A DNA stretch of 64,000 nt, taken from NCBI GenBank assembly GCA_019058365.1, contig JAHPZE010000011.1, forward strand, positions 32,001-96,000, read 5' to 3'. Under the pieces are notes generated by a model. That model had not been told where the DNA came from. It ran no database searches and worked only from the letters and a program-made list of their open reading frames with translations. Shown here piece by piece: positions 15,824 to 50,001 of this stretch; position 1 is the stretch's first letter; each line of letters begins with the position of its first letter. The position numbers were made by a program, and so were the translations under genes. The stretch is from Promethearchaeota archaeon. Lineage in GTDB: Archaea > Asgardarchaeota > Lokiarchaeia > Sigyniarchaeales > SOKP01.

Positions 15824-17218
15824 ATGAATGACAAATTTGATCAACTCCAGAAGATAATTGTGAAACTTATGCGGAAATTCAAGGTTCCGGGTTTAGCAAT
15901 TAGTATTGTACAAAATGATACCAGTCTATACGAAAAGGGATTTGGTGCTCGTAACCTTGAGGAGAATCTACCAATGACACCAAATACCTTAATAGGGATC
16001 GGTAGTATCTCAAAATCATTTACTGCTTTTTTGATATTAAAATTACGCGAAAAAGGTCAACTAAACTTAGATGATTCGGTTAGTAAATTTTTAGAAATTG
16101 AACCCTTTTTGAGTCATCCAGATATTATAATTGCTCATCTCTTATCACATAGCAGTGGAATACCTTCAGTTGATGCGCAATGGCTCCCTATTGCGATCAC
16201 ATATGGTGACTATCAACGTATTTATCCAATAGGTTCTCTTGATGACTATCTTTATCATTTGTCCGAAACTAAAGATGAGATCTTCTTTAAATCAGGAGAA
16301 AAATTCTTCTATAATAATGATATGTTTACTCTTTTGGGATTACTAATAGAAAAGATTACTGGAAAAACCTTTGAAGAAGTTTTAAATGAAGAAATATTGA
16401 AACCCTTAGAAATGACGCGTGCTACGGTCAATCGAGAACAACTTGAAAAGGATCCAATGAAAGATTATATTACGGGTTATATTCATAAAGGCTCAGAAGA
16501 AAAATTGCAATTTGACAAGCCTAAGTTACCTTTTTCGAAATTTCTTCAAGCACCTGGTGGTTTATATACATCTATGCATGAAATGTTAAATTATGCTGAT
16601 TGTTTATTACAGAAAGGTATTTTTAAGAACAAGCGAATAATTGAATCAGAGTCTATTGAATTGCTCTGGAGTCCTAGAATTAAATCACCATATGGGTATG
16701 GAAAAGATCCTAAATACTGCTTAGGTTGGGTTCGGGAGGAAGATTTTCTGAATAACACCCTAATTCATCATGGAGGGGGGTTGGGTGTAAGTACTTCCTT
16801 TTTTGGATTAATCCCAGAGTTAAATATTGCTGTTAGCGTTGCTGAAAATGATGACAGTGGAATTTGCGGTATAGTTGGAATATGTGCTTTAACTATGATG
16901 GTTGGAAAAAATCCTGAACAAATTAATGAAAAACTAAAAATAATTGAAATTTATGATAAAATTGCTGGCAGTTATAAATCATCCCTAGGTTTGTATAAAT
17001 TAGAAGTATCTTTTAAAGCTATGTCCATTCATATTAAAGTTGAATCGGATGATGGAATCTTTAATTTTCCCCTTATTATTGAAAATTTCGATGATTTAAC
17101 TTTTAGATTATTTTCGACAATTCCCTCAAATCTTCAAAAAGTTAAATTTTATCAAGATTCTAAGACGGGAAAAGTGGAATATGTAACATATGATAGGTAT
17201 CTTTACCATAAACTATAA
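15824..17218 (+). CDS. Serine hydrolase, class C beta-lactamase/peptidase S12 family
   Basis: SISK, LLSHSSG, YNN, HGGG motifs. Confidence 0.9.
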   Translation: MNDKFDQLQKIIVKLMRKFKVPGLAISIVQNDTSLYEKGFGARNLEENLPMTPNTLIGIGSISKSFTAFLILKLREKGQLNLDDSVSKFLEIEPFLSHPDIIIAHLLSHSSGIPSVDAQWLPIAITYGDYQRIYPIGSLDDYLYHLSETKDEIFFKSGEKFFYNNDMFTLLGLLIEKITGKTFEEVLNEEILKPLEMTRATVNREQLEKDPMKDYITGYIHKGSEEKLQFDKPKLPFSKFLQAPGGLYTSMHEMLNYADCLLQKGIFKNKRIIESESIELLWSPRIKSPYGYGKDPKYCLGWVREEDFLNNTLIHHGGGLGVSTSFFGLIPELNIAVSVAENDDSGICGIVGICALTMMVGKNPEQINEKLKIIEIYDKIAGSYKSSLGLYKLEVSFKAMSIHIKVESDDGIFNFPLIIENFDDLTFRLFSTIPSNLQKVKFYQDSKTGKVEYVTYDRYLYHKL

Positions 17219-17851: not shown

Positions 17852-18424
17852 TTGTTTAAAATGAAACCTGATATCGTAGATCAAGAATTTTCTCCCTACA
17901 CTATGGCTAGTGTCATTATTGGAACGAAAGTAGAACAAAAACCCAACTTTATGGTGTGTACTTGGGTAAGTCGAGTCAATCGTAATCCTCCCATGTGGAT
18001 GGCTTCTGTCAATAACAAGCATTATTCGTTAGAAGGAATTAAGACAAATCAATCATTCTCAATGAATTTTCCTTCAACATCCCAAGTAAAAGAAACTGAT
18101 TATGTTGGAATCACTTCGGGTAGAAAGGTGGACAAATCAAAAGTTTTTGAAATATTTTATGGTGAGACTGATGTTCCCTTAATAAAAACTTGCCCGTTTT
18201 CAATTGAACTGACTTTAACCCATTCTATTCGAATGCAAGACCATACATTACTTGTGGGAACTGCCCAAAATTCATATTTAGGAAGAGAATATTATACAGA
18301 TGGGCTCCCAGATATGTCTAAAATGGATTTAATGATTTATACTGGGATCCCTGCCACTTATTGGTCCCTGGGTAAAATTGTTGGCAAAGCTTTTTCAGTA
18401 GGACAAGATTTCAACTATCTATAA
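17852..18424 (+). CDS. Flavin reductase-like / flavoredoxin family protein
   Basis: PNFM.CTW, PPM, FSMNFPS, TDYVGITSGRKVDKS, VGKAFSVG. Confidence 0.88.
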   Translation: MFKMKPDIVDQEFSPYTMASVIIGTKVEQKPNFMVCTWVSRVNRNPPMWMASVNNKHYSLEGIKTNQSFSMNFPSTSQVKETDYVGITSGRKVDKSKVFEIFYGETDVPLIKTCPFSIELTLTHSIRMQDHTLLVGTAQNSYLGREYYTDGLPDMSKMDLMIYTGIPATYWSLGKIVGKAFSVGQDFNYL

Positions 18425-18531: not shown

Positions 18532-18642
18532 ACAAATAAATACTTTGATTTTCAGAAAAATATTTAGAAATACCATTAAATTTTTATTTGTAAATATGTA
18601 ATTGAAAATTACATATAACATTGTGAAGTCTTTTTTATAATT

Positions 18643-18693
18643 ATGGCAACTTTGCAAACTTTTGGTTGGCAGTGGCCTTGGTGTTGGCAATAA
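18643..18693 (+). promoter_or_regulatory. Trp-rich leader peptide ORF MATLQTFGWQWPWCWQ, putative attenuator of trpB2
   Basis: 4 TGG codons in 16, in a GC-richer patch 160-210 nt upstream of trpB2; complementary segments and a downstream T-tract. Confidence 0.75.
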
Positions 18694-18852
18694 AGCCAAT
18701 TGCAAAGGATTCTATGTAATATTATTTTTTCGTTTTAATATTTTTCTTAATATTAAAATCTCTTTCTAAATGCGCATTAAACATATTGAATTCCAGTATT
18801 TTGATGACACACATCATAAGATGTGAAAAAATGAATATCAAAGGTAATTAGA

Positions 18853-20256
18853 ATGATAGATAATTTTAATGGAAGAATATTACTACAACCAAATGAAATT
18901 CCAAAGAATTGGATAAATATTTTACCAGATTTACCCTCTTCTATGACGCCCTTAATTAATCCGATGGATGGGAAACCCATTCCTCCTGAAATGGCATTTG
19001 CTATATTTCCAAAAGAATGTGTAATGCAAGAGTTCTCTTTAGAACCTTTTATTCCCATCCCTAAGGATTTGAGGGAAATTTTTGCCCGTACTTATCGACC
19101 AAGTCCACTACATCGTGCTTTAGGCTTAGAGAGAGACTTAGGTATAGAAGGAGATAGAATTAAAATATTTTATAAAAATGAGTCTTGTTCTCCAACGGGG
19201 TCACATAAACCTAATACTGCCATAACCCAAGCATACTATGCAAAAAAAGAAGGTACTGAAGAATTGGTTACGGAAACAGGTGCTGGACAGTGGGGATCAG
19301 CTTTGGCATATGGCTGCAATTTATATAGACTTAAATGCATCGTATACATGGTAAGAGCAAGTTTCATCCAAAAACCAGGCAGAACTATTTTAATGAGAGC
19401 TTTTAATGCTGAAGTACATGCTAGTCCTTCAAATCTCACTGAATCAGGAAATAAATTTTTACAAAAAGATCCCAAACACCCAGGTAGTCTAGGAATCGCG
19501 ATTTCTGAAGCATTAGAACATAGTATGAGAAGTGATAAAGCACGATATTCTCTTGGAAGTGTAGTTAATTTTGTGCTTTTACATCAAACAATTATAGGAC
19601 AAGAAGCTAAAATACAACTAGCGAAAGTGGGTATTAAAAAACCAGATATAATTATCGGGTGCATGGGAGGTGGTTCTAATTTTGGAGGCTTGATGATTCC
19701 GTTTATGAAAGATAAACTTAACGGAACAACTCCAGATATGGAATTTATTGGTGTAGAACCTCGAGCATGCCCTAGTGTTTGTAAAGGAGAGTATAGATGG
19801 GATTTTGGAGATTCTTCGATGAAAGGGCCGATAGTGAAGATGTATACTCTAGGGCATACTTTCGTGCCAAGCCCAATTCATGCGGGAGGATTAAGATATC
19901 ATGGAATGGCTCCTATTATTTCAATTCTATACAAAAACAAATTTCTCAACACAGTTATGCATCATCAAACTGAAGTAATTAACGCCGGTATTCAGTTCGC
20001 TAGAGCTGAAGGTATACTTCCTGCTCCAGAAACTGCGCATGCCATACAAGAAACAATTAATCAGGCATTGAAAGCTAAAGAAAACAATGAGAAAAAGGTA
20101 ATCTTGTTCAATTTTAGTGGTCATGGATTTTTTGATCTATTAGCTTATAAGGAGTTTATGGCTGGAAATTTAAAAGAATTTGAATTACCTACTAATGAGA
20201 TTCAAAGAAATTTAGATTCTGAAGAAATGCCCATAATCGATGAAACCAAATTTTAA
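18853..20256 (+). CDS. trpB2: Tryptophan synthase beta chain, TrpB2 type
   Basis: SPTGSHKPNTA, TETGAGQWGSAL, PGSLGIAISEA, GGGSNFGG, IHAGGLRYHG, PAPETAHA, SGHG. Confidence 0.95.
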   Translation: MIDNFNGRILLQPNEIPKNWINILPDLPSSMTPLINPMDGKPIPPEMAFAIFPKECVMQEFSLEPFIPIPKDLREIFARTYRPSPLHRALGLERDLGIEGDRIKIFYKNESCSPTGSHKPNTAITQAYYAKKEGTEELVTETGAGQWGSALAYGCNLYRLKCIVYMVRASFIQKPGRTILMRAFNAEVHASPSNLTESGNKFLQKDPKHPGSLGIAISEALEHSMRSDKARYSLGSVVNFVLLHQTIIGQEAKIQLAKVGIKKPDIIIGCMGGGSNFGGLMIPFMKDKLNGTTPDMEFIGVEPRACPSVCKGEYRWDFGDSSMKGPIVKMYTLGHTFVPSPIHAGGLRYHGMAPIISILYKNKFLNTVMHHQTEVINAGIQFARAEGILPAPETAHAIQETINQALKAKENNEKKVILFNFSGHGFFDLLAYKEFMAGNLKEFELPTNEIQRNLDSEEMPIIDETKF

Positions 20257-20333: not shown

Positions 20334-21578
20334 TCATGGAAATAACCGAGCTATATGTCTATCGTAAATGTTTTCGATAATATTTGGAGTTATTATATAT
20401 TCATATTTTTTTAGGACTTCTATATATCGAGATCCCATTTCCCCAGCAATTTTATATCCAATATGCAGAAATTGACGAAAATTTGGATTAAAATCTTTAC
20501 AAGCTTCATCATGTTGTAAAACTTTAGCAAATTCTTCGCCAGTCCAATTGTTAACCAAGCTTGGATGAGGCAATTTATCTTTTTTGATATTTATCACAGT
20601 TCTATAAGGAAGATATAGCTCATCAAACCGAATATAAGCTTTATTATAAATTTCTTTAGCGATTTTCAGACATTCACCTCCAACAATGGCTAAAGTAGCT
20701 ATTTCTTCTAACCATGTAGTTCCAGACGTCTTTAAATGAACTCCAGTGTTAAATTTTTTAATAACATTATTAATAATTTCATAAATTGAGAATTTATCAC
20801 TTCCGGAATGAATGCTTAACTTTAAATTATTTGGCAAAGAGAACTCCTTTATCGAAAACTGAATAATCTCTATTAAATTCTCAAAATTTTTCGCAAACTG
20901 CTGAATGTTTCCCTGATAATCAATTCCCTTATAAAAGCTACCACAAAATCTAGGAGCAAATGTCTGAACGGGGATTTTTTCATCGGCTATAGCAGCTAAT
21001 ATAAAAAGTACTTCTATAGGTGTTTGAGGTTTACTCGATTCATCCATAGAGATTTCAATTATAAAGTTATTCTTACCCTTTTTTTCCTCAATTTTACGAT
21101 AAATCTTCCCAGCTTCTTTTATTGCGAGGAGATATTCTTCAGCAATAGAATATACCTGCTTTTCGTTAACATTTAAAGACTCTTTGATATTTAGAATTGA
21201 TATTTTTCTAATGTATTTTTCATATTTATCAGTAAAAGCTTTTAAGTCATCATTCGACGCTTTTTTTCCTATAAACTCTGCTACATCCAGTGTAAAAAAA
21301 TTACATGAATCAACATACGAATCCACATTAGAAAATCCTATGTGATCAGCATCAATATAATATTTACCCTTCCATTTTAATTCCTTTACGGCCTTTTGAG
21401 CTTCATTTAAAACATCTAGAGGTGTTGTTTTGGTAATTAAATGTTCTCTATGAGATTTGTTCCACACAGCAGCAAGGTCTACACCATTTTCTTCTGCTTT
21501 TATTATTGCTTTTAGTAGAGCTTTCCCTTGGCATCCAAATCGATCCCCTATGCCAATTGAATATTTTTGTAATTTCAT
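20334..21578 (-). CDS. uxaE: Tagaturonate epimerase (UxaE) family protein
   Basis: SIGIGDRFG, DADH, EISMDE, APRF.G.F.KGIDY, SIHSGSDKF, HLKTSGTTWLEE. Confidence 0.82.
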   Translation of the reverse strand: MKLQKYSIGIGDRFGCQGKALLKAIIKAEENGVDLAAVWNKSHREHLITKTTPLDVLNEAQKAVKELKWKGKYYIDADHIGFSNVDSYVDSCNFFTLDVAEFIGKKASNDDLKAFTDKYEKYIRKISILNIKESLNVNEKQVYSIAEEYLLAIKEAGKIYRKIEEKKGKNNFIIEISMDESSKPQTPIEVLFILAAIADEKIPVQTFAPRFCGSFYKGIDYQGNIQQFAKNFENLIEIIQFSIKEFSLPNNLKLSIHSGSDKFSIYEIINNVIKKFNTGVHLKTSGTTWLEEIATLAIVGGECLKIAKEIYNKAYIRFDELYLPYRTVINIKKDKLPHPSLVNNWTGEEFAKVLQHDEACKDFNPNFRQFLHIGYKIAGEMGSRYIEVLKKYEYIITPNIIENIYDRHIARLFP

Positions 21579-22943: not shown

Positions 22944-24095
22944 TTACATTTCATGTCCTAACTCTAAAGTTTTATCTCTAATTTGAGAATTACTACTAAT
23001 TTTACAATTAGGTGCTATAATTGCTCTCTCTAGGACAACATTATCTCCAATTTCACAATTATTACAAATAATACTTTCTTTTATTAAACAACCCGCACCA
23101 ATTTTAATTTCATCCCAGATGACACTTTTCTCAATTACCGAATCTTCACCTATGGTTACATTATTTCCTATTGATGTTAATTCTTTAATTTTTACTCGGT
23201 TCTCTAACTGGACAAACTCTCCAAAACAAGCGGGTTTTTCAATCATAATGTTTTGTCCAGAGTTTATAATACCCATCACATAAATTCCATCATAATCAAC
23301 ACCGTTAGGTAAAATAGGCCATACATATTTACGTAATAAGTCCCAATTTGCCCATAAATAAGTAGTTGAATTTCCAGCATCCATCCAATAATAATTTTCA
23401 ACAAATCCATATAGATCATATTTATTTTCGAGGAGGTACGGAAAAACTTCGCTTCCAAAATCCATTAATCCTGTTTCATGAAGGATATTTCCAATGTCTT
23501 TACTAAAACAATAAATGCCCGTATTAATTATGTTGGTATGTAAAAAGAGATCTTCTCGTTGAGCCATACTACTTAAGTATAATTCCATGGGTGCTGGTTT
23601 TTCTAAGAAAAGATATATTTTTCGATTTTTATCTAACAATACAACACCATATTGAGAAATATGACTCTCAACAGTTTTCATTGAAATTGTTGCTAGCCCT
23701 CCTTTTTCAGAATGGAATTCCATGAACCGCTTCATGGGGAGATTTGTTACGATGTCTGCCATCGATACGACAAATTTTTCAGAATCGATTCGATCAGTTA
23801 AAAGCCTATACGCATCTGCGGTACCTCTACTCTCTTGAATCTCATATTCTAATTCTACATCTCCTAATCTGTCTGGAGTCCAAGTTTTTTTGATATATTC
23901 TCTCATTTCCTTTCCCTTGTAAGCTAATGCTAGTACAATGTGCTTAATATCTGCGTATACTAAATGTGCAATCGCATAATCAACCATAGGAACATTTGTA
24001 ACTTTTACAAGCGGTTTTGGAATTAAAGATGTCAAAGGCATTAATCGATTACCTTTACCTCCTGCTAAAACTATTGCAGACCATTCACGAGTCAT
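22944..24095 (-). CDS. Sugar-phosphate nucleotidyltransferase (NDP-sugar synthase) with hexapeptide beta-helix
   Basis: LAGGKGNRLMPLT..PKPL, EKP, NTGIY, YWMDAG, C-terminal IG..hexapeptide repeats. Confidence 0.9.
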   Translation of the reverse strand: MTREWSAIVLAGGKGNRLMPLTSLIPKPLVKVTNVPMVDYAIAHLVYADIKHIVLALAYKGKEMREYIKKTWTPDRLGDVELEYEIQESRGTADAYRLLTDRIDSEKFVVSMADIVTNLPMKRFMEFHSEKGGLATISMKTVESHISQYGVVLLDKNRKIYLFLEKPAPMELYLSSMAQREDLFLHTNIINTGIYCFSKDIGNILHETGLMDFGSEVFPYLLENKYDLYGFVENYYWMDAGNSTTYLWANWDLLRKYVWPILPNGVDYDGIYVMGIINSGQNIMIEKPACFGEFVQLENRVKIKELTSIGNNVTIGEDSVIEKSVIWDEIKIGAGCLIKESIICNNCEIGDNVVLERAIIAPNCKISSNSQIRDKTLELGHEM

Positions 24096-44276: not shown

Positions 44277-46451
44277 ATGTCTGAAAGAAGTATTCATTTG
44301 CCTATTGTCTTTCACTTCCATCAACCAGTCGATAACTTCAATTTTGTAATAGAAGATTGTTATCAGAAAGCATATGAACCTCTTATTGACAGTATATTCC
44401 AATTTGAAGATATAAAAATAACTCTTCATTTTTCTGGTAACTTATTAGAATGGTTTCTAAATTACAAGCCTGAATTTATTGAAAAAATAAAAATTATGGC
44501 GAAAAGAGGTCAGATAGAAATTATTGGAGGAGGTTATTATGAACCTATTTTTGCTATAATCCCTTATCGCGATAAAATAGCTCAAATAAAAAAATTATCT
44601 GATTTAATTAAAAAGGAATTTGGATTAGAAATTAATGGTGCTTGGTTATCAGAAAGAGTATGGGAACCAAATTATCCTTCATTTTTAAATGATGTTGGAT
44701 TGAAATATGTTATCGTTGATGATAATCATTTTCGCTCCACTGGAATAACAGAGGAAGAGACTCTATATTCATATATTACTGAAGATGATGGAAAAACATT
44801 GCGAATTTTTTCTATTAATGAAGAATTAAGATATTTAACTCCCTGGAAGCCAACATATTTATCTATTGATTATCTAAAAAAAATGATCGATGAGAATGGT
44901 GATAGGATAGCTCTTTTAATATCAGATGCAGAAAAGATGGGTGTATGGGGTACTACTCACGAAATATGTTATGTAGAGGGGCAGGGTCATAAAGATGGGG
45001 ATAACGGGAAACCATTTATACCAGCTTTCTTTGAGCAAATTAGAAGTAATTCTTGGATAAAGTCCATTACATTAACGGAATATATGCAAAAGTTTCCCGC
45101 GAAGAGTTTGATATATCTCCCAACTGCTAGCTATGACAAAATGGAGGAATGGGTGTTACCTACAGAAATTAGGAAGAATTTTAAAAAAATAAGAAAAGCT
45201 CTAATGGAGGATGAGGAAAAAAGAGAAATATATCAATTTCTAAAGGGTGGTTTTTGGAGATACTTCCTTGTAAAATACCCAGAATCTAATAATATGCACA
45301 AGAAAATGATTTATATAAGAAATAAACTAATTTCCACCGAAGAGAAACTACTAAAAGTTAAAAATGAACAACTTGTTTCTTTGATACTGAAAAAGATAAA
45401 CAAAGCATGGGATGAGATTTATAAAGCTCAATGTAATGATTGCTATTGGCACGGATTATTTGGAGGAGTCTATTTACAATTTTTACGGTTTTCAGTTTAT
45501 ACACATTTAATAAATACTGAGAAGATAATTGATGAGATTAGTACTTTAATCAATCCAAAATTGAAATCCTATATTTATATAACACCAACTGATTTTATTA
45601 AGGATAGTAGAACAGAGTACTTAATTGAATCAGATCTTTTTAATATTTACATTAATCCTAATGATGCTGGAACAATTTTTGAGTTAGATTATAAACCCAA
45701 ATCTTATAATCTATTAAATACATTAACAAGATGGCCTGAAGCATATCATGATAGTAAGAAACTTGAATCAAAAGAAGTGCTGGTTGATCGATTTAGAAGA
45801 AGTCTACTACGCATTAGATTTTTGCATGATGATGTGACTCTTGAACAGCTCCAAGCCGATCAATATTATGACTTTGGAGATTTTGTTGATGAAAAATACA
45901 GAGTTACAAGTAATGAAAAAGAAGGTAAAATTGCCATAATAGAAATGGAAAGAATTGGAAGTATAAAAGATCCTGATACTGATGATAGAAACCCCGTGCG
46001 AATTACAAAAGATATACATGTAAAAAATAATGAAATTGAAGTTATCATAAGAATTAATTTCAATGAAATCCCCGGAAAAGAAAAAATGCTAAACAGTATT
46101 GTTAATAAGTTAAATGTAGCTGTTGATATTCCTTTTTTCTTTAATGGAGATACAACTAAATTCAAATGGGAAAGCAAGCAAGTGGATCTTGAAGATAATC
46201 TTAAAACAGAATTATTAGAACCATTTCAATATATTGGCTCGCATTTTAAAGCTTATGATGAGACCTATGATCTAAATTTTGAATTTGAGATTTTAACTAA
46301 AAATGATTCAATTAAAATTAATAAATTTCCAATAATTGCATATGCTTTCACAGATGAGGGCTATAAAGAGATTTATCAAGGAATCAATGTTACTCCCGTT
46401 CTTAAACTTAGCAAGAGTTTAGAATTTCAACTAAAATTACAAATTTTTTAA
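44277..46451 (+). CDS. GH57 4-alpha-glucanotransferase/alpha-amylase
   Basis: HFHQPVDN, GGYYEPI, WLSERVWEP, VDDNHF, DAEK.GVW, YPESNNMH, AQCNDCYWHGLFGG. Confidence 0.92.
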   Translation: MSERSIHLPIVFHFHQPVDNFNFVIEDCYQKAYEPLIDSIFQFEDIKITLHFSGNLLEWFLNYKPEFIEKIKIMAKRGQIEIIGGGYYEPIFAIIPYRDKIAQIKKLSDLIKKEFGLEINGAWLSERVWEPNYPSFLNDVGLKYVIVDDNHFRSTGITEEETLYSYITEDDGKTLRIFSINEELRYLTPWKPTYLSIDYLKKMIDENGDRIALLISDAEKMGVWGTTHEICYVEGQGHKDGDNGKPFIPAFFEQIRSNSWIKSITLTEYMQKFPAKSLIYLPTASYDKMEEWVLPTEIRKNFKKIRKALMEDEEKREIYQFLKGGFWRYFLVKYPESNNMHKKMIYIRNKLISTEEKLLKVKNEQLVSLILKKINKAWDEIYKAQCNDCYWHGLFGGVYLQFLRFSVYTHLINTEKIIDEISTLINPKLKSYIYITPTDFIKDSRTEYLIESDLFNIYINPNDAGTIFELDYKPKSYNLLNTLTRWPEAYHDSKKLESKEVLVDRFRRSLLRIRFLHDDVTLEQLQADQYYDFGDFVDEKYRVTSNEKEGKIAIIEMERIGSIKDPDTDDRNPVRITKDIHVKNNEIEVIIRINFNEIPGKEKMLNSIVNKLNVAVDIPFFFNGDTTKFKWESKQVDLEDNLKTELLEPFQYIGSHFKAYDETYDLNFEFEILTKNDSIKINKFPIIAYAFTDEGYKEIYQGINVTPVLKLSKSLEFQLKLQIF

Positions 46452-49416: not shown

Positions 49417-50001
49417 TCATTTATCGTTTAATAGCCATTTTCTCAATTTAAGAGCAATAAAGTAAAAAATAATCGGAGCAGCTAACCAAATTAATTGAGG
49501 CAGTAATGTAATATTATGACCATTAAAAATGAATAATCTAGGATTCCACCAATATTCAATATATTCCCAAGCATTACTAAAAGTGCTGGTTAGTTCAACA
49601 ATCAATTCAGAAACTTGACTATAAATAATCATTATAGCAAATTCACAAGATTTAAACCTCTCAAAAATAGGTTTCTTACACATAATTCGTATAAGTAAAA
49701 CTCCTAAAAGGAACAACCCTCCATCCCATAGGCTATGAGTTATTATTATTAAAATTGTTGAAACCGGAGAAGGTAATGGAGGTGGGATTATAAATCTTGC
49801 TGGGGGAAGACTGCTAATTTCGTTTGCTATAGATAATGGAAGTTCCCAACACAGGCCTAATAAAAATCCAGTCCAAAATAAATACCAAAAATTTTTGCTT
49901 ATCTTTTGAAATTTATATAAAAAATAAACGGTTAAGCAAATTAAGATACCAGCAATCCAAATAAACCAATAAAAAAGCGCCACTTTTAATATTTCTTTCA
50001 A
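49417..50001 (-). CDS. Integral membrane protein
   Basis: About 5 TM helices; WE, HSLWDGG, LPQLIW. Confidence 0.7.
   Translation of the reverse strand: MKEILKVALFYWFIWIAGILICLTVYFLYKFQKISKNFWYLFWTGFLLGLCWELPLSIANEISSLPPARFIIPPPLPSPVSTILIIITHSLWDGGLFLLGVLLIRIMCKKPIFERFKSCEFAIMIIYSQVSELIVELTSTFSNAWEYIEYWWNPRLFIFNGHNITLLPQLIWLAAPIIFYFIALKLRKWLLNDK

Follow-up and report, generated by a model that had tools for sequence, protein, structure and literature searches.

A conserved Trp-codon leader upstream of trpB2 in Asgard archaea, very probably a ribosome-read gauge of tryptophan

Introduction

In E. coli and Salmonella, the trpL leader (RF00513) is short and translated, and carries tandem Trp codons that are clustered above the trp genes and overlap one arm of an RNA helix. 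In bacterial leaders under Rho-dependent control, such as tnaC, the ribosome on the leader decides whether the termination factor gains access to untranslated, pyrimidine-rich RNA; at tnaC, free Trp is sensed in the exit tunnel and catabolism is induced. Leaders enriched in the cognate residue also lie above synthetase genes, as in E. coli pheM-pheST and in the predicted actinobacterial leuS and trpS attenuators, which are equipped with intrinsic terminators. For archaea, Xie and Reeve (2005) reportedly proposed translational control by an ORF of two codons (Met-Trp) ahead of M. thermautotrophicus trpY. The known Trp-responsive regulators of archaeal trp genes are TrpY in Methanothermobacter and Tar/TK0271 in Thermococcus (PMC6737238). 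The original prediction for the locus described here held that multi-Trp leader attenuation is not established in archaea, and we likewise found no report of an archaeal multi-codon leader-peptide attenuator in the literature searched, which covered few subscription papers.

Here we analyze an ORF that precedes trpB2 within a 64,000-nt window (the whole stretch of DNA under study) from an Asgard archaeon. Judged by comparative sequence analysis, this 16-codon, four-Trp-codon ORF is very probably a tryptophan gauge that is read by the ribosome and resembles bacterial attenuators. The leader is real and conserved, and apparently undescribed.

Results

A Trp-rich ORF had been predicted ahead of a tryptophan synthase beta gene; it is present with the expected W-x-W-x-W-x-W arrangement, and both its translation and its coordinates check (Table 1). 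Trp occupies codons 9, 11, 13 and 15, and the stop lies 159 nt 5′ of trpB2. Across the host genome, at least four Trp residues are found in 3 of 8,182 intergenic ATG-initiated ORFs of 8–45 aa, and three Trp residues in 18 of them. When upstream ORFs of the host genome are ranked by the clustering of a single residue, this leader ORF is first of 3,333.

Table 1. Features of the trpB2 leader region and of related leaders (positions in the window unless a genome and contig are given).
Feature	Position	Strand	Description
TATA-like box	18582-18589	+	Conserved; ~60 nt above the leader ATG
Leader ORF	18643-18693	+	16 aa; Trp codons at 18667, 18673, 18679 and 18685; stop TAA at 18691-18693
Stop-codon helix	18680-18697	+	GGY (third Trp codon) paired to RCC (post-stop hub)
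Segment X	18703-18709	+	Conserved; consensus CATTGGA
U-tracts	18725-18745	+	U6 (18725-18730), U4 (18733-18736), U5 (18741-18745)
Hairpin C	18732-18759	+	AU-only, 11 bp; kept in close relatives only; 65% paired in 66 homologues
Hairpin D	18770-18814	+	Three stacked helices with covariation; conserved loop
Shine-Dalgarno-like GGTAA of trpB2	18843-18847	+	GGTGA in some relatives
trpB2	18853-20256	+	Stand-alone TrpB-like PLP enzyme, 467 aa; sole trp-pathway gene found in the genome
Ile-rich leader (L187)	G000:C37 ~46290-46370	-	~165 nt above ileS
Leu-rich leader (L214)	G000:C17 ~23030-23110	-	Above leuS; 14-bp hairpin from the stop codon, U/C-rich loop
Phe-rich ORF	G000:C50 ~49780-49880	-	31 codons; ~210 nt above pheS; seen in the host genome

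The trpB2 product passes the TrpB2 cut-off of TIGR01415 (580 bits versus 519), and its closest named TrpB2 relatives, 99% identical, belong to Promethearchaeia/Promethearchaeota MAGs, which places the host among Asgard archaea of the Lokiarchaeia type. No match to trpA, trpC, trpD, trpE or trpF was obtained anywhere in the host genome, an assembly of 54 contigs that is 100% complete. The only known reaction of a stand-alone TrpB2 is the formation of Trp from scavenged indole and serine. From the family assignment, together with the lack of trpA/C/D/E/F matches, we infer that the host TrpB2 forms Trp from indole and serine without TrpA. FttA/aCPSF1 has a clear match in the host genome, and TrpY (NF053754) was found neither there nor in the 36 same-genus genomes searched.

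Immediately 5′ lies a flavin-reductase-like gene (17852-18424, plus strand); since another gene occupies that position in most of the relatives inspected, it probably has no connection with the leader. Farther upstream, positions 15824-17218 (plus strand) encode a serine hydrolase or penicillin-binding-like protein that scores far under the cut-offs of named beta-lactamase families. A UxaE-family (tagaturonate epimerase) gene at 20334-21578, on the minus strand by its translation, is convergent with trpB2.

The Trp enrichment of short ORFs upstream of trpB2 is conserved in other Lokiarchaeia, as the original prediction would have it. Of 104 distinct trpB2 loci from Promethearchaeota (Lokiarchaeia), 91 have the leader: a strict Trp-cluster test accepts 85, and the other six are homologues, identified by alignment, in which two Trp residues stand four codons apart. 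The genomes are kin, so that the loci do not count as independent events. The leader is kept at all 27 other same-genus loci of the first search, and the 13 of the 104 loci that lack it include one assembly gap, two with divergent TrpY genes and three with hairpin D but no ORF. In other Asgard families, 19 loci were sampled: six have a Trp-cluster ORF, which ends ~100–210 nt above the gene, five have a divergent TrpY gene instead and eight have neither. A Trp-cluster ORF also stands ahead of trpD in 12 of 12 trpD-first operons with upstream DNA, a count that omits two trpE-first operons in TrpY-bearing genomes whose upstream ends lie beyond the retrieved DNA. No Trp leader was seen above trpS. 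Overall, a divergent TrpY-family gene occurs at eight loci (L042, L043, L046, L164, L166, L167, L169 and L174), seven of which have no leader, while L046 carries both. At L160 and L161, in two other Asgard families and with neither leader nor TrpY, trpB2 is closely preceded by the end of a short ORF in the same orientation, possibly a third regulator.

TGG has no synonymous codon, and conserved Trp codons could be a conserved nucleotide motif. The signals that define an ORF are, however, confined to the Trp frame. Among 90 non-redundant loci, the open stretch above the TGG cluster holds an ATG in frame at 81 and in each of the other frames at one, and a stop follows within 12 codons of the cluster at 83 loci in frame, compared with 11 and 16 in the other frames (the leader stops being TAA at 46, TAG at 34 and TGA at 10). 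This frame test thus argues for translation rather than for a nucleotide motif, and indicates that the leader ORF is selected to be translated. An intergenic chance ORF, for which one could cite the 18 short host ORFs with three Trp residues and the three with four, as well as the 11% of control genes that pass a loose Trp-pair test, is contradicted by this frame test; both the conservation and the selected frame extend across more than 100 loci and two different trp loci, which reduces its probability to almost nothing. The UGG repeats could instead form the site of a Trp-activated (TRAP-like) RNA-binding protein or a DNA operator, with the ORF incidental, since the conserved Trp codons are also conserved nucleotides and a YNTGG unit recurs, including in segment X. 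We regard this as very improbable given that start and stop signals occur only in the TGG frame, that codons 2–8 are free of stops and that the Ile and Leu leaders described below use several synonymous codons.

The residues at codons 2–8 vary widely, hence the non-Trp peptide sequence looks unimportant, as expected of a sensor. At five loci (L026, L027, L078, L088 and L090), loss of 1 nt past the fourth Trp codon frameshifts the leader tail, so that the C-terminal residues are dispensable. Across relatives the peptide is 13–60 aa long with 2–6 Trp residues, mostly spaced as W-x-W and not adjacent, and its stop lies ~80 to 460 nt from the gene. Although a W-x-W-P-W-x-W motif is well kept within the genus, as would suit a Trp-rich micropeptide acting on the membrane or on a partner protein, we give such a functional product little credence: the length range, the unconstrained N-terminus and the tolerance of frameshifts past the Trp cluster all speak against it, the residue after each Trp is dictated by the first base of its codon rather than by chemistry, and the enriched residue (Trp, Ile or Leu) follows the downstream gene.

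Leaders of the same kind precede synthetase genes. An Ile-rich ORF (ending IISAIIII) lies ahead of the shorter ileS-family gene at each of the 9 same-genus loci for which upstream DNA exists, ORFs akin to it precede ileS-family matches in two genomes of another family, and a Leu-rich ORF (ending LLAVLLLP) precedes leuS at 13 of 13 same-genus loci. Each time, the enriched residue is the cognate of the downstream gene. The Ile and Leu leaders end ~140–185 nt before ileS and leuS, and in each a long hairpin starts at the stop or immediately beyond it, as in distant Trp leaders. The Shine-Dalgarno region of ileS can pair either within the Ile ORF or with a segment in the loop of the post-stop hairpin. 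The Ile, Leu and Phe leaders escaped the host-genome ranking of upstream ORFs, as these residues are common in AT-rich DNA. The core of the original prediction, that a translated Trp-rich leader controls trpB2 in cis by sensing charged tRNA-Trp, has strong support: the leader is conserved and selected in frame, it occurs with trp genes and almost never with TrpY, and it has Ile and Leu counterparts. Taken alone, the sensor part, in which the ribosome would read the leader as a gauge of charged tRNA-Trp, has our high confidence.

A TATA-like stretch at −25/−30 had suggested a leaderless transcript, which we now judge unlikely. That stretch is unconserved: across 68 homologues, a TTTTA(A/T) box has 46 matches at −63 to −54 from the ATG versus 6 at −33 to −24. 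With the conserved box ~60 nt upstream of the ATG, a leaderless mRNA is improbable, and the trpB2 mRNA would start near 18610 with a 5′ UTR of ~30 nt. Genome-wide, the TATA-like motif of the host peaks at both ~−30 and ~−60 from start codons, which suggests that leaderless and 30-nt-leader promoter classes coexist.

The sequence elements from which alternative RNA pairing had been proposed are all in place: GCCAA (18695-18699), its two TTGGC partners (18684-18688 and 18666-18670) and a T-rich tract (18722-18736). The post-stop GCC is indeed a conserved hub; its best partner is the third Trp codon (18680-18684) and not the first or last, as had been thought. In an alignment of 66 homologues, this stop helix (columns 56–60 with 71–75) is paired in 88% of cells, two of its pairs show compensatory changes, and its substitutions are either compensatory or wobble-compatible. 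RNAalifold arrives at the same partner for the conserved post-stop GCC, which places the stop inside a hairpin. At the host locus the hub can alternatively pair with the last Trp codon (18684-18688 with 18695-18699). In 264 of 312 cases (85%), TGG is followed by C, compared with 12% in the genes of the genome, so that every Trp codon supplies a GGC arm for the GCC hub. The control codons overlap the 5′ arm of this conserved (1:2) helix, a trpL-type feature.

The stop helix and hairpin D covary. Jointly they are 87.9% paired, with 52 compensatory cells versus 14 in shuffles and 26–54% pairing in slid controls; the helices were picked after seeing the alignment and the homologues are related, so these and the other shuffle counts are not probabilities. 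Hairpin D occurs once in the host genome and is present in two trpD-operon leaders as well. L074, L079 and L129 have lost the ORF and kept hairpin D, and L129 retains the post-stop hub and segment X too. The exact complementarity of CTTTGCAA (18650-18657) and TTGCAAAG (18700-18707), another element of the original prediction, does exist at this locus, but the 8-bp helix is not conserved: 49% of cells are paired in the 66 homologues, and 454 of 500 shuffles score as high. This helix and the −25/−30 TATA-like stretch both look incidental. Segment X is a possible alternative partner of the hub; their CC:GG pairing is 93% maintained without compensatory change, and spans 2–4 bp in most relatives and 8 bp in a few. 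Covariation is absent from the candidate long-range helices. Pairing of segment X with 18792-18797 (through 18704-18709) shows two suggestive compensatory cases, no excess over independence and a near-zero folding probability, and neither this pairing nor that with 18765-18774 (through 18701-18709) is supported.

Downstream of the hub, homologues reach 59% U and 76% pyrimidine 30–40 nt past the stop, within a U-rich stretch whose peak spans 30–50 nt past it. No GC-rich intrinsic terminator (3:4) is conserved ahead of the U6 tract; hairpin C lies after the run and consists of AU pairs alone. Rfam gave no match at gathering score and only chance matches by E-value, and thus none to the T-box riboswitch, which is defined by a Stem I with specifier loop and a T-box antiterminator. 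Folded alone, 18640-18740 is not unusual (z = −0.54). Folding with and without a ribosome footprint had been suggested as a check, and no switch appeared: in predicted folds of 69 leaders, masks on the Trp codons or on the stop left the accessibility of the U-tract and of the Shine-Dalgarno region unchanged.

These results bear on how the same Trp sensor might act after transcription, with ribosome position setting translation initiation on trpB2 or the cleavage or stability of its mRNA. Hairpin D could mediate such control, as could a duplex between the U-tract and the A-rich stretch that precedes the Shine-Dalgarno sequence. In favor of this output, no terminator hairpin was found, and hairpin D, the best-conserved structure, lies 30–75 nt above the Shine-Dalgarno sequence; the ileS leader also contains a segment that can pair with its own Shine-Dalgarno sequence. 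The U-tract in the window can pair with 18823-18838, and U:A duplexes within a locus exceed those formed across homologues in strength (−5.4 versus −4.5 kcal/mol), yet not those with shuffled partners (−5.1). The constant accessibility of the Shine-Dalgarno region under ribosome masks argues against this output as well, and a stop-to-gene distance that ranges so widely fits termination better than Shine-Dalgarno masking. We consider a post-transcriptional output less likely than termination, and the main rival to it.

Discussion

We propose, at a probability of about 0.58, that a cis-acting, ribosome-read gauge of charged tRNA-Trp limits transcription into trpB2 through FttA-dependent premature termination. 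The termination output is a weaker step than sensing, and we infer all steps past sensing. Transcription would start ~30 nt above the leader ATG. When Trp-tRNA is ample, the ribosome would reach the stop, cover the post-stop segment and depart, whereupon the stop helix would re-form, and the untranslated U-rich RNA 30–55 nt downstream would be cut by FttA/aCPSF1, ending transcription before trpB2. When Trp is scarce, the ribosome would stall on the UGG cluster, block the 5′ arm and free the post-stop hub; the freed hub could then adopt an alternative structure in which the U-rich stretch is shielded; polymerase would thus enter trpB2, and TrpB2 would make Trp from scavenged indole and serine.

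The geometry of the post-stop hairpin in Leu, Ile and distant Trp leaders places its 5′ arm within reach of a terminating ribosome and not of one stalled at the control codons. If the genes are induced by shortage, the hairpin must be protective and not a terminator, a role that suits a factor dependent on exposed U-rich RNA, such as FttA, and favors FttA-gated termination. FttA prefers U-rich RNA (PMC11616081; PMC13675443) and has been described as analogous to Rho (PMC13681488), and the U-tracts at this locus are its candidate target. Against termination stand the missing GC-rich hairpin before U-tracts that are common in an AT-rich genome, masked folding that yields no switch, a long-range antiterminator that does not covary, hub:X pairing without compensatory change and the three relatives that keep hairpin D without the ORF.

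More tentatively, and at somewhat less than even odds, Asgard archaea may possess a family of amino-acid-sensing leaders (Trp, Ile, Leu and probably Phe) that gate the access of FttA/aCPSF1 to U-rich nascent RNA with no bacterial terminator hairpin. If the FttA-gating reading is true, the hairpin at the leader stop codon is a protective fold. A natural leader-peptide switch would offer a compact, mutable test of whether a ribosome can gate archaeal termination.

The leader also bears on Trp management in Asgard archaea that scavenge amino acids. P. syntrophicum MK-D1 is reported to be unable to make Trp (PMC11316595). It appears to carry a trpB2 with a two-Trp leader (L039), and the genome matched to MK-D1 has no trpA or trpD match. 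That a leader-preceded trpB2 is kept despite the reported inability suggests regulated indole salvage, and a leader version in MK-D1 would allow the element to be tested.

Compared with known systems, the Asgard leader shares with trpL the short translated ORF, the Trp codons clustered above a trp gene and the overlapping helix arm. It differs in its archaeal host, in Trp codons that alternate instead of standing in tandem and in having another 160 nt of structured RNA ahead of the gene; because both an intrinsic terminator and an Rfam match are lacking, we do not assign it to the trpL family. Its proposed output resembles Rho-dependent leader control, but unlike at tnaC, the clustered Trp codons and the biosynthetic role of the target gene suggest that a tRNA shortage is sensed. 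The Ile and Leu leaders above ileS and leuS recall pheM-pheST and the actinobacterial attenuators, which are bacterial and use intrinsic terminators. TrpY and Tar/TK0271, in contrast, are DNA-binding proteins that act at promoters. The nearest archaeal precedent would be the two-codon Met-Trp ORF before trpY.
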